64,000 nt of DNA from contig CAWANJ010000009.1 of the NCBI GenBank assembly GCA_963783385.1, forward strand, positions 736,001-800,000. Direction: 5' to 3'. The translations under genes and the position numbers were made by a program. The notes below the pieces were generated by a model, which ran no database searches, had not been told where the DNA came from, and saw only the letters and a program-made list of their open reading frames with translations. Below are positions 2,968-18,358 of this stretch, one piece after another. The stretch's first letter is position 1. The number at the start of each line of letters is the position of its first letter. This DNA comes from an uncultured Gemmatimonadales bacterium. GTDB lineage: Bacteria; Gemmatimonadota; Gemmatimonadetes; Palauibacterales; Palauibacteraceae.

Positions 2968-3705
2968 CTATCCTCCGTGCGTACGAACTCTCGTCTGCAG
3001 GGCCTCCCGCTCCGCCGGGCGCAGCTCGCGCCACGCCCCGGACGGGAGGTCGGCCAGCTCCACCGGGCCGAACGCCACCCTCTTCAGGTAGCGTATCCGG
3101 GCGTCGAGCGCATGCAGCATTCGCCGGATCTCGCGGTTCCGTCCCTCGTGCAACGTCACCAGGAGGACCGGGCCCGGGCCCGCATCCGGCAGAAGGCTCG
3201 ACGCGTCGGCGGCCGCGAGACCGTCCTCGAGCTCCACTCCCTCGAGCAGCCGCCGGGCCAGGCCCGGCGGGGCGGGCGCCACCAGCCCGACCTCGTAACG
3301 CTTCTCGACCTCCGCCGAGGGATGGAGGAGCCCGTGCGCCAGGTCTCCCTCGTTCGTGAGGAGGAGGAGTCCCTCGCTCATGTAGTCCAGCCTTCCGACG
3401 TGGAACAGCTCGCCGAGCCCGGCGGGCAGGCCATCGTACACGGTGGGGCGACCCTGCGGATCGGACCGGGTGCACAGCGTTCCGGGCCGCTTGTGAAGCG
3501 CGATCCACCGCGGCGGGGACAGCTCGACCCGGCGGCCGTCCACGGTCACGTCGCTGCTGGCCGGATCGACGCGCGAGCCCATCTCCGTGACCACTTCGCC
3601 GTCCACCCGGACCCGCCCCTGCCGGATGAGATCCTCGCTGGCCCGCCGCGATGCCACCCCGGCGCGCGCCAGGTACTTCTGAAGTCGCATCGAGCCCGTC
3701 GTCAC
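2968..3705 (-). CDS. rluB: 23S rRNA pseudouridine synthase (RluB/RsuA family)
   Basis: MRLQKYLARAGVASRR S4 domain, VGRLD catalytic motif, EGRNREIRRM; GTGA overlap with scpB stop (alternative start ATG 3690). Confidence 0.9.
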   Translation of the reverse strand: MTTGSMRLQKYLARAGVASRRASEDLIRQGRVRVDGEVVTEMGSRVDPASSDVTVDGRRVELSPPRWIALHKRPGTLCTRSDPQGRPTVYDGLPAGLGELFHVGRLDYMSEGLLLLTNEGDLAHGLLHPSAEVEKRYEVGLVAPAPPGLARRLLEGVELEDGLAAADASSLLPDAGPGPVLLVTLHEGRNREIRRMLHALDARIRYLKRVAFGPVELADLPSGAWRELRPAEREALQTRVRTHGG

Positions 3706-4355
3706 GGCGGTGGGCCTCCGCTGGCGGCCGGCCCCTCCGCCGCCGGATCCTCCCCGCCGGCCGGGTCCGGCTGCGCCGCCGGCTCCAGCGCCGCGAACAG
3801 TCCGGCCTGATCCCCCGCGGTCCCCTCCTCGCCTCCGCCCAGCGTCACGCTCAGGGCCCCGGGCTCGGGCAGGTCGTCGAGACCCTGGAAGCCGAAGTGG
3901 TCCAGGAAACGCTGCGTGGTGCCGTACAGGAGGGGCCGTCCCAGCCCTTCGCCCCGACCCACGACCTCGACCAGATCCCACTCCTGCAGCGTCCTGAGGA
4001 CGGAGCTGGACCCGACCCCGCGGACCTCCTCGATCTCGACGCGCCCGATCGGCTGCCGGTAGGCGATGATGGCCAGGGTCTCGAGGGCGGCCTCGGAGAG
4101 AATCGGCGAGCGCGGGACGGAGTCGAAGCGCTCCAGGTAGGGCGCGTACTCCGGCCGCGTGAGGATCTGGAACCCGTCGCCGAGACGGAAGACCTGGAAG
4201 GCACGATCCGACGCGTCATACGCCTCCCTCAAGGCCTCGAGCGCCTCGCGGACGCGGTCCGGGGTGAGCGCCTCGTCCGCTCGCGCCAGCTCATCGGGCG
4301 TGAGCGGCGTCTGGCTGGCGAACAGCGTCGCCTCGACGATCTGCTCCGGGCTCAC
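3702..4355 (-). CDS. scpB: SMC-Scp complex subunit ScpB
   Basis: IVEATLFAS, LSEAALETLAIIAYRQPI, EIEEVRGV, GRPLLYGTT. Confidence 0.93.
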   Translation of the reverse strand: MSPEQIVEATLFASQTPLTPDELARADEALTPDRVREALEALREAYDASDRAFQVFRLGDGFQILTRPEYAPYLERFDSVPRSPILSEAALETLAIIAYRQPIGRVEIEEVRGVGSSSVLRTLQEWDLVEVVGRGEGLGRPLLYGTTQRFLDHFGFQGLDDLPEPGALSVTLGGGEEGTAGDQAGLFAALEPAAQPDPAGGEDPAAEGPAASGGPPP

Positions 4356-5194: not shown

Positions 5195-5860
5195 TCAGCT
5201 CAGCGCGTAGGCGAGCGCCATGGCCGCCCGGTCCAGGACGGTGACCGGCGAGAGGATCACGCCGAGGATCCCCGGAAAGAAGAACACGATCGCCAGCAGG
5301 ATGATGCTGTACCGGCTCAGCGCCCGGTAGCGCGCACCGAGGGCGGGCGGGAGGAAGTGATACAGCACGTGAGAACCGTCCAGCGGCGGCACCGGAATCA
5401 GGTTGAACACGGCCAGGATCAGGTTGATGAAGATCCCGTATCGGGCCATCACCTGCAGGACGGACGCGGACCGCGCCAGGCTGCCCCCGGTCCATCCGAT
5501 CAGATGACTCAGGAGGGCGAACACCAGCACCCAGCCGATCACCTGGGCGAAGTTGATCGCGATCCCGGCCAGGGAAACGAGGATGTCCCCCTTCCGGTAG
5601 TTCTTGAAGTTCCGGCTGTTGATGGGCACGGGCTTGGCCCAGCCGAACAGGAACGACCCGGGGAGCAGCCACAGGACGATCGGCACGACAATGCTGCCGA
5701 TCGGATCGATGTGCGGAAGCGGGTTCAGGGTCAGACGCCCGAGCATGGCCGGCGTGGGGTCGCCCTGCCACACGGCCACTCGCGCGTGCGCCCACTCGTG
5801 CAGCACCACCGCGAGGAGCAGCACGGGCAAGACCAGGACCAGCGTGCTGATGGAGTTCAT
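5195..5860 (-). CDS. Site-2 protease family (M50) membrane metalloprotease
   Basis: HEWAH zinc motif and NLIPVPPLDG motif; multiple TM segments. Confidence 0.9.
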   Translation of the reverse strand: MNSISTLVLVLPVLLLAVVLHEWAHARVAVWQGDPTPAMLGRLTLNPLPHIDPIGSIVVPIVLWLLPGSFLFGWAKPVPINSRNFKNYRKGDILVSLAGIAINFAQVIGWVLVFALLSHLIGWTGGSLARSASVLQVMARYGIFINLILAVFNLIPVPPLDGSHVLYHFLPPALGARYRALSRYSIILLAIVFFFPGILGVILSPVTVLDRAAMALAYALS

Positions 5861-5909
5861 CCCTTTCCCGTCCCCACACCCGGCGGACGCGCGCTCTTCT
5901 CGCTACACC

Positions 5910-5938
5910 TTGATCGCGCGCGATTCCGCATCTATGTT
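5910..5938 (+). promoter_or_regulatory. Candidate sigma70 promoter of rpsT
   Basis: TTGATC-N17-TATGTT, 45 nt upstream of rpsT. Confidence 0.55.
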
Positions 5939-5983
5939 GAAAGACTCGATTCGTGACCCTGAGAACACCGGAGTCGACGCACC

Positions 5984-6241
5984 GTGCCGAACATCAAGAG
6001 CGCCAAGAAGCGCCTCCGCCAGTCGGAGAACCGCCGTGTCCGCAACAAGTCCGTGCGGTCACACATCCGCACCCGGATCCGGGCCCTGCTGGCCACCACC
6101 TCGGCCGAGGACGCGCAGGCCCTGCTCCCGGACCTGTATGCCCTGCTGGACCGCGCGGCCGGCCGCGGCGTCCTGCATCCGAACACGGCCGCCCGTCAGA
6201 AGTCGAGACTGGCCCGCCACGTGGAGTCGCTCTCCGACTGA
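5984..6241 (+). CDS. rpsT: 30S ribosomal protein S20
   Basis: MPNIKSAKKRLRQSENRRVRNK...HPNTAARQKSRL. Confidence 0.97.
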   Translation: MPNIKSAKKRLRQSENRRVRNKSVRSHIRTRIRALLATTSAEDAQALLPDLYALLDRAAGRGVLHPNTAARQKSRLARHVESLSD

Positions 6242-6260
6242 CGCCGACCGGCGCGGCTCC

Positions 6261-7211
6261 TCAAGCCGCGCCGTCCCCTCCCTCCCGCTCCGCGGTTCCG
6301 TCGTCCTCGTCTTCCTCCTCGCCCTCGTCGAGCACGAGCGAGAGGGTGTCGAGTGAATCGGCGTCGTCCAGGGACAGCGACTCCAGGAAGTCCAGTTCGT
6401 CCTCGTACCCCGACTCTCCGCCGTCCTCTTCACCGGCGGCTTCCCCGTCCCCCGCCGGGACGGCGTCCGACCCCGGCGGCGCCTCCGGGCGCTGCTCGAG
6501 GAACGACAGCACGTCGTCCTCCTCCTCGGCCTCCTGTTCACCGACCTCGTCCGGGCCGGCGGCCGACGCCTCGGACCGCGTGGAGGCCGCCGCGCCTCCA
6601 CCCAGCGCCGGCTCGGGCATGGTGCCCGACATCCAGCCGGGCCTCGTCTGGAGTCCGGAAACCTCCGCGGCTTCGTCCTCCACGGTGGCTTCGTCCTCCA
6701 CGACTTCCTCGGCCTCCATCGCGTCGGCCGCCTCGGCTCCGGACTCCACGGCGCCTGGCACCGGAGCGTCGAGCTCGGCCAGGACCTCCTCCAGTCGATC
6801 CACCGCGGCGGCCTCCTCCTCCAGCCGGCCCTCGAGCTCCCCGAGGGCTCCCTCGTGCTCGGCCCGGTGGGTCTCCCACTCCTCGTCGGAGTACTCGCCC
6901 ACGCGGTGGCGGAGCTCGGCCTCCTCCTTCCGGGCGGCGCGCTCTTCGCGCTGTCCCTCGAGGTCCTCCATGCGCTCCCGGCGCTCCGAGAGCGACGCCT
7001 CGAGCCCGTCGCGGTGGCCCTTGAGCTCGTCCTCGACCTCGCCCAGGCGCTCCAGGTAGTCCTCGCGCACCCGTTCGTACACGGCCCGGCGCACACCGCC
7101 GACCTGACCGTCGAGCCTGGTGAGCCACCCCCGGTAGGTGGAGCGCCGCTCGAGGAGCTCGGAGATCTCCTCGGGTATCGTGGCTGTCCCGGTCCCTTCC
7201 TGGTCCTCCAT
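6261..7211 (-). CDS. Hypothetical acidic coiled-coil protein
   Basis: ATG 7211 (MEDQEG...); E/R-rich helical N-half and acidic low-complexity C-half; downstream of pyrC. Confidence 0.7.
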   Translation of the reverse strand: MEDQEGTGTATIPEEISELLERRSTYRGWLTRLDGQVGGVRRAVYERVREDYLERLGEVEDELKGHRDGLEASLSERRERMEDLEGQREERAARKEEAELRHRVGEYSDEEWETHRAEHEGALGELEGRLEEEAAAVDRLEEVLAELDAPVPGAVESGAEAADAMEAEEVVEDEATVEDEAAEVSGLQTRPGWMSGTMPEPALGGGAAASTRSEASAAGPDEVGEQEAEEEDDVLSFLEQRPEAPPGSDAVPAGDGEAAGEEDGGESGYEDELDFLESLSLDDADSLDTLSLVLDEGEEEDEDDGTAEREGGDGAA

Positions 7212-11915: not shown

Positions 11916-13075
11916 GTGACGCACGCCCCCGGGTACGACCTCGAGGCGGTGCGGCGGAGGATCCCCCTCCTCCGCCGCCTCGTCCCCATGAACGCCTGCT
12001 CGCACGCGCCCCAGTCCGACGCCACCCGCGCCGCCGCCGAGGCCTACCTGGGCTCGTGGGACCGCGGACGGCATGGACTGGGACCGCTGGATGGAGGAGG
12101 TGGAGCGGGCCCGGGCGACCTTCGCCGCACCTGGTCGGCGCGGAGCCCGCGGACGTGGCCGTGGCCGCCTCGGTCTCCCAGGCCACCTCCAGCGTGGCCA
12201 GCGGTCTGGACTACGCGGGCGAGCGGCGCCGCGTGCTGGTGAGCGGCGCGGAATTCCCCACCGTGGCCCACGTGTGGCTCGCCCAGGAGCGCTTCGGCGC
12301 CGAGGTGGCCCGGGTCCCGGTGCGGGATGGCGTGGTCGCCCTGGAGGACTACGAGGCCGCCCTCGACGAGCGCACGCTGGTCGTGTCGGCCTGCCACGGC
12401 TACTACCAGGACGGGTTCAAGCAGGACGTCCCCGCCATCGCCGCGCTGGCTCACGCGCACGGCGCCCTCCTGTACGTCGACGCCTACCAGACCCTGGGCA
12501 CCGCGCCGTTCGACGCCCCCGCCAGCGGGGCGGACTTCGTGGCCGCCGGCTGCCTCAAGTACCTGATGGGGATCCCCGGCATCGCCTTCGTGTGGGTGCG
12601 GCCCGGGCTGGCGGAGCGGCTGCGGCCCGCGCTCACCGGCTGGTTCGGGCGCCGCGAGCCGTTCGCCTTCGACGCGGAGCGCCTGGACTGGGCCGAGGGC
12701 GCGCGCCGGCTCGACCTCGGTACCCCGCCCGTGCTGGAGGCCTACGTCGCCCGCGCCGGCATGGAGTGGCTGCGCGAGGTCGGGCTCGAGGCCATCGGAG
12801 CGTGGAACCGAGCGCTCGGGGCCAGACTGATCGAGGGAGGCCAGGAGCGCGGCTTCCGGCTCCTCGGAACCGACGACCCGGACCGGAAGACGCCCTCCAC
12901 CGCCTTCGCGTGCGAGGACGGCCACGCCGTGGAGGCCGCCCTGCGGGAACGCGGGGTGCTGGCCTCGGCGCGCGGGCCCGCCATCCGGCTGGCGCCCCAC
13001 TTCTACAGCTCCCTCGAGGACGTGGACCGCGCGCTGGACGCCCTGTCGGAGGTGCTGGGGGGCGGCGAGGCGTGA
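11916..13075 (+). CDS. Class V PLP-dependent enzyme, kynureninase-like (apparent frameshifts ~12066 and ~12130)
   Basis: Three joined frames: MTHAPGYDLEAVRRRIP..., MDWDRWMEEVERARATFA, then EFPT, VDAYQ, GCLKYLMG (PLP Lys), IRLAPHFY. Confidence 0.8.
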
Positions 13076-14410
13076 GCCCGGCCCGCGAGACCTTCGGGTC
13101 CCGGCTCGGGATGCTGGCCACCATGATCGGGGTGGCCGTGGGGCTCGGGAACGTGTGGCGCTTCCCGTACATGGTGGGGCGCTACGGCGGGGCGGCGTTC
13201 GTGCTCCTCTACGTGGTGCTGGCCGCGGCCGTGGGCGTGCCGGGGCTGATGGCCGAGTGGTCGCTGGGGCGGGCCACGCGGCGCGGGCCGCTGGGGGCGT
13301 TCGAGCGGGCCGGACTCCCGGGCGGACGCGTTCGTCGGCTGGCTCCTGTTCCTGGTCGTCCTCACCGCGCTCGGCTACTACACGAACGCCATCGGGTGGG
13401 TGGCCTGCTACGCCCTCGGCCAGCTCCTCGTCCCCCTGGGGCGGCCTCTGGACCCCTCCGCCATTCTCCCGCCCGCTTCCGGCTTCTCCGGCCGGGCCTT
13501 CGCGCTGCAGCTCACCTTCACGGCCCTCCTCCTCCTGGCCCAGGGCGCGGTGATCCGGAAGGGGCTCCGGGCCGGGATCGAGAAGGCGAGCCGGGTGCTG
13601 ACGCCCCTCGTGTTCGTTTCCCTGCTCGTCCTCCTCGTCCGCTCCCTCACCCTGCCGGGCGCGGGGGCCGGCGCTGCGCTGGTACCTGGCCTTCCACCCC
13701 TCGCGACGTGACCCCGTCCGTGCTGGTGGCGGCGCTGGGCCAGGTGGTGTTCTCGCTGGCGCTGGGCGGCACGATGATGGTCGTGTACGGCTCCTACCTG
13801 GCCGAGGGGGAGGCGCTCAAGGGCGACGCCATCCTCACGGTGGTGGGCGACACGGCGGCCGGCTTCCTGGCGGGTCTCGCCATCTTCCCGGCCGTGTTCG
13901 CGTTCGGTCTCGAGCCCGGCAGCGGCCCCGGCCTCCTGTTCGCCACCCTGCCCCGCGTCTTCGCCCACATCCCGGCCGGCTGGGCCTTCGGCGTCCTGTT
14001 CTTCGGGGCCTCGCTGGGCGCCGCCTTCCTGTCGGGCATCGCCGCCTTCGAGGTGCTGGCCGCCGGCCTCGGCGACGCCCTCGGGATGCCGCGGCGGAAG
14101 GCCGTGAACCTCCTCCTGGGGCTGCTGCCTCCTGCTCGCCCTGCCGCCCATGGTGAACCTGAAGGTCTTCGTCCCCTGGGACCTCACCTTCGGCTCGGGC
14201 GGGCAGACGGTGGGCGCGCTGCTCGCGGCCATCACCGTGGGCTGGGCCCTCCGCCGCGGCGCCCTGCTCGAGCAGATCGGCGGCGACCACCCGGGCCGGC
14301 TGGACCGCTTCCTGGTCGCCTGGCTACGCTGGGTGCTGCCCGCGGCCATCCTGACGGCGGGAGCGTGGTGGGTGGCGTCGGACGTGCTGGGGGTGGCGGG
14401 AGGGGCGTAG
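13072..14410 (+). CDS. Sodium-dependent transporter, NSS/SLC6 family (several apparent frameshifts)
   Basis: GVAVGLGNVWRFPY, GQVVFSLALG, VYGSYL, AIFPAVFAFGLEPGSGPGLLF spread across shifted frames. Confidence 0.85.
14294..14397 (+). repeat. Direct repeat copy 1 (3' end of NSS transporter gene)
   Basis: 104 bp matching 18245-18348 with 3 A/G differences; weaker homology extends back to CACCTTCGGCT at 14185. Confidence 0.92.
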
Positions 14411-14456
14411 TCGACCGCGCATCGGCATGGCCTCCGGGTGCGGAGCCGGCACCACG

Positions 14457-15582
14457 CTAGCCACTCGATCCTGGCGTGACGATCCGAGGCTTCAGAATCT
14501 CGGCTCGGGTGTCCCCCGCGCGGGTTTCTGACATGCGGTACAGGAGCAGACCGTCGCCGCAGACGGGAGCGACGACCGCATCGAATCAATGCCGCGCCAT
14601 CACGCGGACTCGGGACCCATGGCTGACGTCCAGGACCTCGACCACCGTGTCGAATGTCCGACGGGTCCAGGCGGGTGAGCTGAAGTGGAGCGAGTCGGGA
14701 CTCCAGTGCGCATCAGGTACCACCGAAAACGTCCAGAGCCGGCGGTCGGTGCCCTCCGTCAGGTGCTCGAGGTACACGAGCGGAGGCAAATCCGTGTACA
14801 TCCTCTCCAGCCGGCCCGGCGTGACCTCCTGACGGTCGGGAAACCAGGCCGCATGGCGTGCGTAGCTTCCCTCGACCTCACCCGCATCGCTCCAGTGGTA
14901 GATCTCGTATCTCCACACGCTGGCGGTCCAGAGGTCACCGTGGCGCCCGCCCGCGACGGTCCACCAGTCGAGATCGCCGAACTGGTGGTTGTGAGTTCCG
15001 AATTGTGCTATCCGGGTCCCGGCATCGTCGAGCACACGGAACAGCGGCCGCTCGTTGTCAGACGCCGCCGGTTCGGTCGTGAGGAGCCATCGACCCCCAC
15101 CGAGACGGCTCCATCCGCTCCCACCGCCGGGCAGTCGAAAGGAACCCAGAAACCGGCCTTCTGCCGTGACTGTGACGGCTCGCTGATTGAACCGGTCGAA
15201 CACTTCGAGCGTATCTCCGTGCATGACCGTGAGGCCGAGCTGATTGCCGAACTCTGTGGGCCCCTGCCCTGGGCGACCCACCGCCCTCAGCCACATACCG
15301 TCGCTGCCGTAGACCGCCAGCTGACCGCCCCCGACAAGATCACCGACCACGAAATCCCCGCTCACCAAATGTGCGATCGAGCACAGAGTTCCGAGGGGCG
15401 CATCAGCGGAGATCGAGGCAGGATCGTTCGCCCCTCCGAGCCGGGCGATCACCTGGATCTCGAGAATGGCATGTTGGACAGTTCGAGTCTGCGGCGATTG
15501 AGCTCTGTGACACATTTTCGTTACTTCGGTGCCGTGGACGCGATCCGGTGGCGGAGCAGGCCGCGAGAACGGCGACCAGCAT
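14457..15582 (-). pseudogene. Beta-propeller-like lipoprotein (frameshift ~15465, in-frame TGA 14588-14586); start uncertain
   Basis: MLVAVLAAC lipobox and CPTC, then after a shift LEIQVIARLG...AVGRPGQGPTEF (GxxGxGPxEF motif of 6-bladed propeller/NHL-like proteins); frame stays open 42 codons past the TGA (FDAVVAPVCGDGLLLY...). Confidence 0.7.
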
Positions 15583-15827
15583 CGTGAGGAGGGGGCCTCC
15601 TCTCGACGGCGTCCAGCGACGGTTTCGTGTAGGAACCTCACGGCGCAAATCAGCACACTCAGTTAGCGCCTGGTGAGACTCATCCTCCATGGCGCAGGCC
15701 ATGAAGCGAGTTACCGTGGACCGGTCTGAACATAGACGCCGGCAGTATCCGAGCACTGCAGTCGCCCGAGATACGGACGGACTGCCCAGAGCCGCTCCCA
15801 GACCGGGCTGCACCGTGCCATGCGGTT

Positions 15828-16508
15828 CTATCCGGCCCCATGCTTCTGAAGAGCCTGGCGAACATCCTCGACCAACATGGACTCCGCGGGCAGTCCCGTC
15901 TCGACAATGCGTCCGATAACGAACGTCGGCGTTCCTCGAACTCCCAACCTTCTGCCCGCCTGCATGTCCCTCTCCACGCGGGGCATCGGCGCTGCATCTC
16001 TTAGGCACTCCATGAACCGTTCCGAGTCGAGCACGCCGGCTCTACGGGACAGTTCCACCCAGTTCAGGAGTCCGAGCGAGTCTTGCTTGGAGTACGCTAC
16101 GTGAAGGAACGCCGCAAATCGGCCCTCGTCTGCAGCGCATTCCGACGCCACAGCCGCTTCGAGTGCCTGCGGGTGAACCTCTGACAGGGGATAGTGCCTG
16201 AATCTCACTGCCACGTGTCCGCCGAACACGGTGGTCACAGAATCCAGGAGCCCTTCGGCCCGCGCACAATACGGGCATTCCATGTCTGCGAACTCCACGA
16301 CGTGAACACGGGCCGTCTTGGATCCGATGACGTGCCCCCCATTATCGAGTTCCACTGCAAGTTTCCGGTCAATCGTACGGACGGGGGAGCGTGAGGTCTC
16401 GATCGGTTGCGTACTCAATTCACGTCGAACTACGAGGGCCGTGACGGTCACTGCGCAGCCTGCAAGAACCCCGAGCGCCGCATTCTGAAAAAGATCGGAT
16501 GCCTTCAC
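15828..16508 (-). CDS. Membrane-anchored DsbA-like thiol:disulfide oxidoreductase
   Basis: N-terminal TM, VVEFADMECPYC, FRHYPL..HPQA, GVRGTPTF cis-Pro motif. Confidence 0.9.
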   Translation of the reverse strand: MKASDLFQNAALGVLAGCAVTVTALVVRRELSTQPIETSRSPVRTIDRKLAVELDNGGHVIGSKTARVHVVEFADMECPYCARAEGLLDSVTTVFGGHVAVRFRHYPLSEVHPQALEAAVASECAADEGRFAAFLHVAYSKQDSLGLLNWVELSRRAGVLDSERFMECLRDAAPMPRVERDMQAGRRLGVRGTPTFVIGRIVETGLPAESMLVEDVRQALQKHGAG

Positions 16509-16636
16509 GATCCAATTTCATCCGGGGGCTCAAGCGTAGTGTCCAGACTTCACCTTCAGATCTGCCAAAGGACCTGATGCCGGATCCCTTTGCACCTTGC
16601 CTGGGGTGCGCCCGCTGCGTTGGAGGTAGCAAGACC

Positions 16637-16855
16637 TCAGAAACACTGACCAGGCATGGGTGACCCGGGGCCAGCTGAGCACTTAGAACACACGGGGTCC
16701 GGACTGCAGTCAGAATTCGAATGGCAGGCCTGGTCGCAGACCAGTGAATTCGTCCTGGTCGAATTCGAATTGGCATACGCCGGTGTTGAAATGTATACCG
16801 CGCCACCGAAGGTCACAATGGCTGCGATCAACCCAGCGATGAGTCGCTTGTTCAT
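16637..16855 (-). CDS. Small secreted six-cysteine peptide (72 aa; putative cystine knot)
   Basis: AGGAG RBS before ATG 16855; signal peptide MNKRLIAGLIAAIVTFGGAVYISTPAYA; mature part ends CDQACHSNSDCSPDPVCSKCSAGPGSPMPGQCF. Confidence 0.8.
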   Translation of the reverse strand: MNKRLIAGLIAAIVTFGGAVYISTPAYANSNSTRTNSLVCDQACHSNSDCSPDPVCSKCSAGPGSPMPGQCF

Positions 16856-16895
16856 GACCTTCTCCTGGCTACGGTGGACTACCACCTCTAGTATT

Positions 16896-16925
16896 ATTTT
16901 AAAAGATCGTTCGACGCCGTGTCAA
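16896..16925 (-). promoter_or_regulatory. Near-consensus sigma70 promoter of the peptide gene
   Basis: TTGACA(16925-16920)-N18-TAAAAT(16901-16896) in an AT-rich patch 40 nt upstream of the ATG. Confidence 0.75.
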
Positions 16926-17132
16926 GAATTCAGGGCCAGGACCTTCCCCAGAGACTCCATCTCAGATTCTGTAACCCGTTGATGATCAGTCGCTTGTAGG
17001 CATCTGCGAGTGAAACGGGCCCGCTCGAGCGGAGAATGGGGAACCTTCGTGCAGATGAAAGCGGGCCCCCACTCGCACAAGTTGTTGGTGTCCATCGGCA
17101 AGGAAGCCGACCACCTGGCGAGGGGGACCCGG

Positions 17133-18192
17133 ATGGAGAGTGCGCGGCTCGCGGGGAAGGTGCAAGGTCAGATCCTGCGATTCTCGGGGAAACTTTCGGC
17201 CGGGCTGCCCAGAGATGGCCCGCCGGGCGGTGGGGGAGATCCTCTACGGGATGCAGGCCCGCGGCTCGGTTCGCCTTTCGGAGATCGGACGGGCCCTGGA
17301 GGAAGAGACGGTCCTGAAGACGGTGATCGAGCGGCTGGGCCGACAGCTCGGATGGCCCGAGCTTCGGCGCCGGGTGCGGGAGAACCTCCTGGCCCTCGGG
17401 ACGCCGAAGGTAGGCGAGCAAACGCTGCTGGTCACCGACCTGACCGACATCAGCAAGGCCTACGCTCAGAAGATGGAGCACCTGGCCAGGGTGTACGACG
17501 GCCGGGCGGACGAGATCACCGACGGCTACGAGTGCGTGGAGGTGCTGGCGGCCGAGGCGGGTTCGCCCGACGTGGTGCCCCTGTATCAGGAGCTCTACAG
17601 TTCGGAGGCGCCGGAGTTTGTGAGCGAGAACCGGAAGGTGCTCAAGGCGGTGCGGGCGGTGAGCCGCGCCACCGAGGGCCGGGGGATCTGGGTGATCGAC
17701 CGGGGCGGAGACCGCCGGAACATCACCCCGCGGCTGGAGCGAGGCCAGGACTTTCTGATCCGGCTCTAGGGCCGGCGGCACCTCGAGTGGAGGCGCTCGG
17801 CTCTGAGCGCCCGGGAGCTGGCGACCCGCACACGCCGCCCTTTCGAGGAGACGGTCGTCAAGGAAGAGGGCGCCGAGGAGAGAGCCTATGTCCTGCGCTT
17901 CGGCTCCACCCCGGTGCGCTTTCCCGGCTCGGCGCGCCGACTCTGGCTGGTCGTCGTGGACGGACGGGGAGCGAAGCCGCTTCTGCTGCTGACCACCCTG
18001 CCCGCCGGCCGGTCCAGGAGGCGCACCTGGCGGATCGTCCAGAGCTACTTGACCCGCTGGCGGGTGGAGGAGACGATCCGCTTCCTCAAGCAGAGCTACG
18101 ACGTGGAGGACATCCGGCGGCTCAAGTACGACCGGCTCCGGGCCATGGCCACGCTCGTGATGGCCGCCGGTCACTTCGCCACCTTCGGCTAG
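17133..18192 (+). pseudogene. IS4-family DDE transposase remnant
   Basis: DLTDISKAYAQKMEHL, WVIDRGGD, YLTRWRVEETIRFLK (Y-2-R-3-E-6-K); frameshift ~17212, in-frame TAG 17767-17769, C-terminus truncated at the repeat. Confidence 0.85.
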
Positions 18193-18358
18193 GGCGGACA
18201 GACCGCCGGCGGCCCTCCTGCGCCAGCTCGGGGGCGGGGCCCCCGGCCGGCTGGACCGCTTCCTGGTCGCCTGGCTGCGCTGGGTGCTGCCCGCGGCCAT
18301 CCTGGCGGCGGGGGCGTGGTGGGTGGCGTCGGACGTGCTGGGGGTGGCCGGCGCCTAG
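18180..18358 (+). repeat. Direct repeat copy 2: decayed 3' fragment of the NSS transporter gene
   Basis: 18245-18348 near-identical to 14294-14397; 18180-18244 is a diverged, internally deleted copy of 14185-14293 with TCG>TAG. Confidence 0.9.

Follow-up and report, generated by a model that had tools for sequence, protein, structure and literature searches.

A recurrent Gemmatimonadota gene trio links a secreted six-cysteine mini-protein to a DsbA-like oxidoreductase and an NHL-type propeller lipoprotein

The window analysed here is a stretch of 64,000 nucleotides (nt) from an uncultured Gemmatimonadales bacterium (contig CAWANJ010000009.1 of assembly GCA_963783385.1, positions 736,001 to 800,000 of the forward strand). 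At 14457–16925 it holds three co-oriented genes on the minus strand, here called the cassette, which encode a small cysteine-rich (Cys-rich) peptide, a DsbA-like protein, and a beta-propeller lipoprotein. A preliminary description of the window, made from sequence alone, had read this segment as a lower-GC (guanine plus cytosine) islet with the three genes behind one strong promoter. The reading frames, the GC profile, and the promoter match all bear this out. The GC fraction is 0.55–0.66 across 14400–17200 and 0.73–0.78 in the flanks on either side. The candidate promoter agrees with the consensus at 11 of 12 hexamer positions. It is the sole site of its type in 14300–17200, and shuffled sequences average 0.6 sites per whole 2.9-kb region. 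From the promoter onwards, the features are as follows.

16896–16925, minus strand: candidate sigma-70-like promoter (TTGACA, 18 nt, TAAAAT; read from 16925 to 16896), upstream of the peptide gene

16637–16855, minus strand: six-Cys mini-protein precursor, 72 amino acids plus stop (ATG at 16855, stop 16637–16639)

15828–16508, minus strand: membrane-anchored DsbA-like thiol:disulfide oxidoreductase, 226 amino acids, ECPYC (GTG at 16508, stop 15828–15830)

14457–15648, minus strand: NHL/DUF5128-like beta-propeller lipoprotein, likely start TTG 15648–15646, lipobox VLAAC, motif GRPGQGPTEF

The peptide gene has AGGAGA 7 nt 5' of its ATG. Its product begins with a Sec-type N-terminus, MNKRLIAGLIAAIVTFGGAVYISTPAYA, followed by 44 residues with six Cys in the spacing C-x3-C-x5-C-x5-C-x2-C-x11-C. 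The signal covers approximately residues 1–28 (16772–16855), and the mature part of 44 residues is encoded by 16640–16771. The cleavage site after AYA was assigned by reading the sequence, without a predictor. Reading of the open reading frame (ORF) confirms the 72-residue precursor, the Sec-type signal, and the six Cys of the preliminary description. The N-terminal part is a Sec-type signal and no leader of a ribosomally made peptide that is modified after translation (RiPP). The cassette also has no RiPP-type modifying enzyme, its other genes encoding the DsbA-like protein and the propeller only, as had been proposed.

The small ORF is more than a chance frame, because 55% of its amino acids are kept in a paralog (the module-B peptide described below) and the mature part of that paralog has accumulated no replacements. 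Genomes are denoted here by G codes: G000 is the genome of the window, G002 and G003 belong to the same genus (g1), and all others are other Gemmatimonadota genomes. A comparison of G000 with G003 shows 3 synonymous and 0 non-synonymous changes in the stretch that encodes the mature module-B peptide; the signal has 4 non-synonymous changes. At the level of sequence, then, the mature peptide is under purifying selection, and conservation of the peptide ORF, which the preliminary description had named as a check, holds. The six Cys are conserved across the alignment of the peptide family.

The second gene encodes a protein with a single N-terminal hydrophobic segment. It matches Pfam Thioredoxin_4 (PF13462; E 6.5e-22, 78.9 bits, cut-off 23.2) and DSBA (PF01323; E 2.5e-13, 50.7 bits, cut-off 25.6), in agreement with the membrane-anchored CPYC thioredoxin-fold protein described earlier. 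Its paralogs in modules B and C also score above the Pfam cut-offs. The CxxC (C78, C81), a second Cys pair, and the Thr-Pro loop (T193, P194) are invariant in 7 cassette DsbAs, and P194 is presumably in the cis state, as in the DsbA family. The nearest solved relatives of the cassette DsbAs are DsbA-like proteins and oxidoreductases (4pwp, 7unn, ScsC, BdbD). Elsewhere in G000, a DsbA-like gene of housekeeping appearance stands directly upstream of the gene for a VKOR homologue (88.8 bits; G000:C1:692862–693805, L153). No DsbB match was found in G000, which is 92% complete. Since G000 has this separate DsbA-like gene beside VKOR, the cassette DsbAs are additional paralogs with a re-oxidant available. 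They probably work in the oxidase direction.

The third gene is broken in the assembly. The lipoprotein signal and the propeller body stand in different frames, with an extra base at 15465, and a TGA at 14586–14588 interrupts the last 42 codons. Contigs from 4 of 4 public DNA runs (2 studies; soil and sediment metagenomes) have one base fewer at 15465. The same four runs read G instead of A at 14588, which turns the TGA into CGA (Arg), the residue that paralog B has there. With both readings applied, the propeller ORF is unbroken from the lipoprotein signal to the stop at 14457–14459. The frameshift and the TGA are therefore assembly errors. A pseudogene was considered and rejected on these frames, and the earlier expectation that the propeller would need repair was not borne out, the gene being intact in all four runs. 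The window and the covering public contigs differ at 14588, 15368, 15465, 15906, 16343, and 17212. Two of these positions lie in the DsbA-like gene (15906, silent; 16343, N56D in the public runs), and the public runs have one base fewer at 17212. An A directly 5' of ATG is the context of all four substitutions and of the extra base at 15465. This clustering suggests a systematic base-calling error of a long-read-like assembly. The lesson is that this assembly miscalls A-ATG sites and that its 'pseudogenes' need comparison with reads.

The lipoprotein with a GxxGxGPxEF motif that had been proposed is confirmed by its VLAAC lipobox and by GRPGQGPTEF. Lipoboxes typically follow the consensus [LVI][ASTVI][GAS]C. 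By eye, the lipobox region is LLTMLVAVLAAC in module A, FFLLLTGLAAC in module B, and LSLLSTAC in module C. Propeller B (L001 6950–7104; also L004 in G003) has a clear lipoprotein signal and no in-frame ATG, GTG, or TTG upstream, with identical DNA in both genomes; it may start at CTG or another rare codon. The window propeller ORF matches no Pfam family at E ≤0.1. For PF17170 (cut-off 22.9 bits), paralogs B (17.1) and C (12.8) fall below the cut-off, and the cassette propellers L110 (23.2) and L089 (24.6) pass. Most propeller members are below the Pfam cut-off. A profile of 25 propellers searched against the PDB finds the NHL domains of TRIM71 (5.5e-48, 5 stretches), Thin, TRIM2/3, and Brat, as well as the PAM lyase domain 3fvz (1.5e-7). 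In the ESM Atlas, the nearest propeller clusters carry DUF5128/NHL, with scores of 0.93–0.95. Invariance in the alignment is limited to Gly, Pro, Asp, and Arg residues that belong to the NHL repeat, and no catalytic set was seen among them. A PAL-like lyase, a glutaminyl cyclase, and a sulfotransferase were each rejected, there being no conserved His, Tyr, or metal set and the interface being variable. No sulfotransferase family is among the Pfam matches listed at E ≤1.

The cassette of the window (module A) has a counterpart in the same genome. Module B lies on contig C2 of G000, between recX and a carbonic anhydrase gene, and has all three genes in the same order within a lower-GC patch. Beside the 55% identity of the peptides, the DsbAs of modules A and B are 50% and the propellers 54% identical. 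A third type, module C, is intact in G002 and G003. Its identity to A and B is approximately 31% for the peptide, 28–33% for the DsbA, and 37–40% for the propeller. By these sequence comparisons, the peptide, the DsbA, and the propeller diverge at similar rates. In G000, module C is reduced to decayed pieces (L002, G000:C2:62000–74000, at approximately 3650–3900 and 5500–6950). In one piece, the N-terminus of the peptide runs directly into a frameshifted propeller, and the DsbA gene is missing. In the other, part of a peptide stands next to a duplicate of the end of the upstream BNR-type gene. Module A is present in decayed form at the syntenic position of G002.

How far does the peptide family reach? 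A peptide profile run over 145 genomes of the order gave matches at E ≤1 in 67, of which only those in G000, G002, and G003 (3 of the 4 genomes of the genus) are convincing; the remaining weak matches were rejected on inspection. Over 401 genomes of the phylum, 15 had matches at E ≤0.01, and those in G000, G295, G424, G460, and G281 were accepted. Beyond the genus, real family members thus occur in three more genera, which belong to two other families (G295, with 3 loci; G424 and G460; G281). Matches in G269 and G455 were rejected, having no signal-like N-terminus and no partner genes after them. Another 8 matches (E 0.002–0.009, mostly with internal stops) were dropped, as no six-Cys signal-peptide ORF was found there.

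With G002, G003, and a Palauibacter record added, these genomes make up the accepted loci. Wherever the DNA downstream of an accepted peptide gene can be read, a DsbA-like gene and a propeller come next, a result that covers four genera from three families. Outside the genus, the DsbA-like proteins at these loci are membrane-anchored with CAYC, CPYC, or CGAC as active site, and the propellers carry a GxGPGEF/DY motif. The peptide genes of G460 and of the Palauibacter record are frame-disrupted in their assemblies. A metagenome scan returned three contigs, all three near-identical to module C, and no new lineage. Among 1.84 billion representative proteins, 6 reach E 1e-3 with the peptide profile. 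Five are family members of 60–112 residues, all with six Cys and four with a MKRAIW-type signal; three of the library members (P0003, P0004, P0006) are known as protein sequences only, without gene neighbourhoods. The remaining protein, P0005 (503 residues with a repeated CxxxCxSDSDC motif), was set aside as a different, repeat protein.

Several neighbours of these loci deserve mention. A CarboxypepD_reg protein of approximately 276 residues with a plug-like tail follows the propeller in module C (L015 7469–8296, with a 4-nt stop overlap) and in G281 (L148 6232–7065), and it may be a fourth, optional member of the cassette. Genes for extracytoplasmic function (ECF)-type sigma factors lie directly upstream of the cassettes in G295 (L049 2–328), G424 (L147 5544–6242, minus strand), and the Palauibacter record (L110 1–1197, minus strand). 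Another lies upstream of the cassette at L085 (3230–4000), in frame with an over-long ORF. Two IS110 transposases and a two-component pair also lie near the G424 cassette. Further loci in other genera of the order (L046 1387–2079 and L045 254–646, both minus strand) carry small secreted Cys-rich ORFs that have no relation to the peptide family.

Database matches of the peptide are faint. Pfam CarbpepA_inh (PF02977), the potato carboxypeptidase inhibitor (PCI) family, scores below its 25-bit cut-off with peptide B (E 6.4e-4, 19.9 bits) and peptide A (E 0.048, 13.9 bits) and gives no match with peptide C. The precomputed Pfam label of library protein P0001 agrees with CarbpepA_inh. The best PDB match of the peptide is the tomato 'fruit-specific protein' 2hlg (E 0.13), with five Cys and SNSDC in register. 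A PDB profile search with the mature peptides did not recover the PCI family and returned only a retroviral nucleocapsid zinc knuckle at chance level (E 0.55). No NCBIfam model matches any of the 16 peptides tested, and the best ESM Atlas score, 0.81, is uninformative. We treat the PCI/knottin likeness, which is below threshold, as a lead and not as family membership.

The linkage was also followed from the side of the DsbA. The 80 best DsbA-like loci were taken from all phyla, one genome per species, comprising 16 from Gemmatimonadota and 64 from other phyla. A signal-peptide ORF with 6, 8, or 10 Cys lies on the same strand within approximately 1 kb of the DsbA-like gene at 12 of the 16 Gemmatimonadota loci, versus 3 of the 64 others. 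The automatic scan supplied ten of these 12, and inspection or a hidden Markov model (HMM) added the other two (L110 and L089). A propeller is also present at 8/16 Gemmatimonadota loci and at 0/64 in other phyla, as judged with a propeller HMM built without these loci. By a rough estimate from the abundance of the family, a propeller at half of the Gemmatimonadota DsbA loci is far above chance. The preliminary description had staked its proposal on a recurring linkage between small secreted Cys-rich ORFs and the genes for DsbA and propeller. This linkage is seen, and strongly so, as are the even Cys counts it had looked for: the count past residue 25 is even in all 16 scanned ORFs.

The peptides beside the Gemmatimonadota DsbA-like genes belong to several unrelated families. 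Gene order also varies among the 8 loci with a propeller (peptide-DsbA-propeller, DsbA-peptide-propeller, or propeller-DsbA-peptide). Three loci (L068, L080, L113) have three tandem peptide paralogs each, and L068 and L080 have one DsbA and one propeller. The three loci from other phyla (L084, L091, L131; Archangium/Myxococcales) all carry the same myxobacterial 8-Cys signal-peptide protein, 112–115 residues long and 518–707 nt from the DsbA-like gene. It is the only comparable pairing seen outside Gemmatimonadota. In each module observed, the thioredoxin-like and propeller parts are encoded by different genes. The long ORFs of L085 and L101 were considered as fusions and rejected, the causes being an over-extended frame and a different N-terminal domain.

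Co-folding of peptide and propeller, proposed in the preliminary description, was run with residues 40–401 of propeller B (25-row alignment) and the mature peptide A (3-row alignment), a non-cognate pair. The predicted complex has an ipSAE of 0.65 (three runs: 0.61, 0.65, 0.70), and the best of three controls reaches 0.01. Of 157 solved complexes, 116 attain the same ipSAE mark, as do 2 of 215 mismatched pairs; these counts are only approximate with custom alignments. The pLDDT of the partner is 66–70, and contacts agree between runs at a level of at least 77%. On the peptide, the predicted contacts are residues 15–21 (ACHSNSD) and 31–40 (including GPGSPMP). The latter stretch is a Pro-rich loop with a family-invariant Pro, just before an invariant Gly. 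On the propeller, the predicted contacts are scattered over 82–332, a distribution that would be expected if the peptide sat on the face above the central channel. Because these interface positions vary among paralogs, client-specific binding fits better than a shared active site. The model thus supports binding of the peptide to the propeller.

The islet itself extends over 14400–18350. It contains the cassette and transposase remnants of the insertion sequence (IS) families IS4/IS701, and it is flanked by a direct repeat.

14185–14400, plus strand: direct repeat, left copy, the 3' end of an SNF-type transporter gene; bounds the islet

17140–18192, plus strand: IS4/IS701-type DDE transposase remnants, between the cassette and the right repeat

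18180–18351, plus strand: direct repeat, right copy, a displaced duplicate of the transporter 3' end, found by repeat comparison

The repeat consists of two matched segments, D6 (14185–14216 versus 18180–18211, 84% identity) and D1 (14261–14400 versus 18212–18351, 89%). The transposase remnant at 17914–18192 matches DDE_Tnp_1 (6.9e-6) and the IS4 family (5.1e-8), with weak IS4/IS701 matches on 17140–17769. Contigs from public runs span 14370–17303 (X1) and 16293–18274 (X3), and because they bridge the islet, its layout is real and no assembly chimera. As in islands that come from recombination between related strains, insertion of the islet brought or kept a second transporter gene end. No integrase was found in the islet (14185–18351). 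The SNF-type sodium-dependent transporter gene itself (13050–14410, plus strand) shows approximately three apparent frame changes and contains only one A-ATG-type site; the public-run comparison begins at 14200.

Together, these results support a compact system of precursor, folding catalyst, and partner protein. The interpretation we favour, with confidence a little short of even, is that the cassette acts as a dedicated machine which folds and handles a knottin-like mini-protein and that the mini-protein is its product. The 72-residue precursor would be exported by Sec and lose its signal peptide (step 1). The membrane-anchored DsbA paralog of the cassette would then install three disulfides in the 44-residue mature part, whose Cys spacing resembles that of plant cystine-knot mini-proteins (step 2). 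The cassette DsbA would be re-oxidised by the VKOR homologue of the genome (step 3). The cognate NHL-propeller lipoprotein would bind the mini-protein by two loops, the conserved Pro-rich last loop (GPGSPMP) and HSNSD, which would settle on the face above the central channel (step 4). The assignment of oxidation to this DsbA and the knotted fold are likewise proposals, and what the peptide finally does could be antagonism, signalling, or inhibition. For the propeller, the candidate roles are those of receptor, immunity protein, and folding scaffold. A maturation machine fits the tandem loci, where one DsbA and one propeller would serve up to three tandem precursors.

Fused proteins offer a parallel to this division of labour. 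NHLRC2 of animals and SOQ1 of plants have a thioredoxin-like domain fused to a six-bladed NHL propeller. The cassette also places a thioredoxin-fold redox module beside an NHL propeller, the propeller profile matching NHL domains. It differs in being split into two genes, with a candidate client encoded next door. The active sites differ too: CCINC in the thioredoxin-like domain of NHLRC2/SOQ1, and CPxC in the cassette, whose DsbA-type protein also has a membrane anchor and a helical insert. In NHLRC2, the thioredoxin-like and NHL domains form a putative partner-binding cleft (PMC6107167), an architecture that likewise fits a maturation machine. By the same logic, the cassette DsbA and propeller would act as a split, client-specific machine that serves one to three precursor genes.

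Several observations weigh against such a dedicated machine. No exporter gene belongs to the cassette. The knottin likeness of the peptide stays below threshold. The co-folded pair is non-cognate (the cognates being 54% and 63% identical), the alignments are shallow, and the support is model confidence only. No propeller was seen in the locus DNA examined at 4 of the 12 DsbA-plus-peptide loci (L067, L069, L085, L113), so the propeller may be dispensable. A DsbA-propeller fusion occurs in 0 of 49 longer DsbA homologues. The propellers carry 2–4 Cys of their own, including a CxxC in modules A, B, and G295, and could for that reason be DsbA clients themselves. Finally, the propeller family is greatly expanded, with matches in 55 of 61 related genomes and up to 27 per genome, and most copies have no DsbA neighbour.

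A serious rival, although an unlikely one in our estimate, is a toxin or bacteriocin with its immunity protein. The propeller would sequester an antagonistic peptide in the periplasm of the producer, and the DsbA would only fold the peptide. The sublancin operon of phage SPbeta (sunA, sunT, bdbA, sunS, bdbB) provides a precedent for a disulfide-bonded secreted peptide with its own oxidoreductases. The cassette similarly encodes a secreted Cys peptide with its own thiol-disulfide oxidoreductase. It lacks the Gram-positive host of sublancin, the leader-cleaving ATP-binding cassette (ABC) exporter, the glycosyltransferase, and the small membrane immunity protein. In their place stand a plain Sec signal, no exporter or modifying enzyme, and a propeller lipoprotein as the third gene. 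Antagonism is consistent with predicted binding on the paralog-variable face and with several diverged copies per genome (three module types in genus g1, three loci in G295). The lower-GC islets with IS remnants and duplicated flanks, the decayed copies in G000 C2 and G002 C16, and a conserved signal (MKRAIW...) before a more variable core would also fit. One propeller for three tandem peptide paralogs (L068, L080) does not, since a toxin usually has an immunity protein of its own. Neither an exporter nor a lysis function is encoded in the cassette, and in a cell with two membranes a Sec signal by itself takes the peptide no further than the periplasm. In addition, the peptide evolves no faster than its neighbour genes, and PADLOC gives no match. 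The mini-protein could instead be the small subunit of a stable two-subunit envelope protein, with the propeller as the other subunit and the thioredoxin-fold protein as assembly factor. This is the logic of methylamine dehydrogenase, in which mauB encodes the propeller heavy chain, mauA the Cys-rich light chain, and mauD a thioredoxin-like protein. The same three types of part recur in the cassette (propeller, small multi-disulfide partner, dedicated thioredoxin-fold factor). The spread of predicted contacts over propeller residues 82–332 and the strict co-occurrence and co-divergence of the three genes accord with a stable complex. MauA, however, has approximately 12 Cys and two Trp that form the tryptophan tryptophylquinone (TTQ) cofactor. 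The cassette peptides have 33–44 residues and six Cys, and their mature parts, when aligned across the family, contain neither a conserved Trp nor any other residue that would form a cofactor. The propeller is NHL-type with only Gly, Pro, Asp, and Arg invariant and no catalytic set. Genes for MauG, MauE, and amicyanin are absent from the cassette, and unrelated peptide families and tandem peptide copies occupy the same slot. We consider a two-subunit protein improbable.

Two alternatives remain. In uropathogenic E. coli, the DsbL/DsbI system includes an extra DsbA paralog encoded beside the beta-propeller protein it serves, arylsulfate sulfotransferase. The cassette, too, has an extra DsbA paralog beside a propeller, and the peptide might be an unrelated passenger. 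Conserved Cys in the propeller lend this some weight: the propellers of A, B, and C share a pair close to their first and last strands, and those of A, B, and G295 have an N-terminal CxxC. So does the presence of a propeller at 8 of 16 Gemmatimonadota DsbA loci. Yet 4 loci have a DsbA and a Cys-rich peptide without a detected propeller, and none was seen with a DsbA and a propeller and clearly no peptide. The peptide Cys counts are always even, both neighbours stand at every real peptide-family match, and the co-fold supports a direct peptide-propeller contact at the level of a model. The cassette also differs from DsbL/DsbI in having no DsbB-like partner (VKOR is elsewhere in G000), an NHL/DUF5128-like propeller, and a Cys-rich peptide as constant third member. 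We hold a DsbA that serves only the propeller to be very improbable. A mini-protein that guards the envelope as a PCI-type metallocarboxypeptidase inhibitor or other protease inhibitor, with the propeller as no partner, is quite improbable. The sub-threshold CarbpepA_inh matches of peptides B and A, the label of P0001, and the 2hlg match argue for it, the spacing of the first five Cys and SNSDC being in register with 2hlg. The scores are nevertheless under the 25-bit cut-off, peptide C has no match, and the PDB profile search did not recover the PCI family. PCI inhibits through a longer C-terminal tail, and the cassette peptide has only 1–3 residues after its last Cys. Its last loop is also longer (x11–12), and it is bacterial, with dedicated partners. 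A protease inhibitor would leave the constant propeller neighbour unexplained.

Single-client disulfide oxidases (DsbL, BdbA/B, MauD) and disulfide-rich peptides without other modification are already known. No paper describing such a cassette was found in the full-text literature searched, with most subscription journals outside its coverage, and Pfam, NCBIfam, and PADLOC have no entry for it. Here a recurrent three-part cassette, spread across the phylum, extends the dedicated-oxidase theme by an NHL propeller predicted to bind the client. It is small, self-contained, and easily tested by co-expression. If its parts cooperate, a small even-Cys signal-peptide ORF beside a DsbA paralog and a propeller becomes a rule for mining genomes for a hidden class of stable mini-proteins. 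The cassette would then be a possible tool for producing disulfide-rich peptides and a handle on the unexplained thioredoxin-NHL architecture. A wider proposal, which we think doubtful for now, is that Gemmatimonadota are a large, so far unrecognised reservoir of ribosomal, disulfide-only mini-proteins with 6, 8, or 10 Cys. These would fall into several unrelated families, some knottin-like, and each would be made by a split machine of the NHLRC2 type, with a dedicated DsbA and a client-specific NHL propeller that grips one loop. If true, bacteria would have their own equivalent of the way venoms and plants produce cystine-knot peptides, missed by current genome-mining tools. It would also offer a simple bacterial model for the use of the propeller in NHLRC2 and SOQ1.

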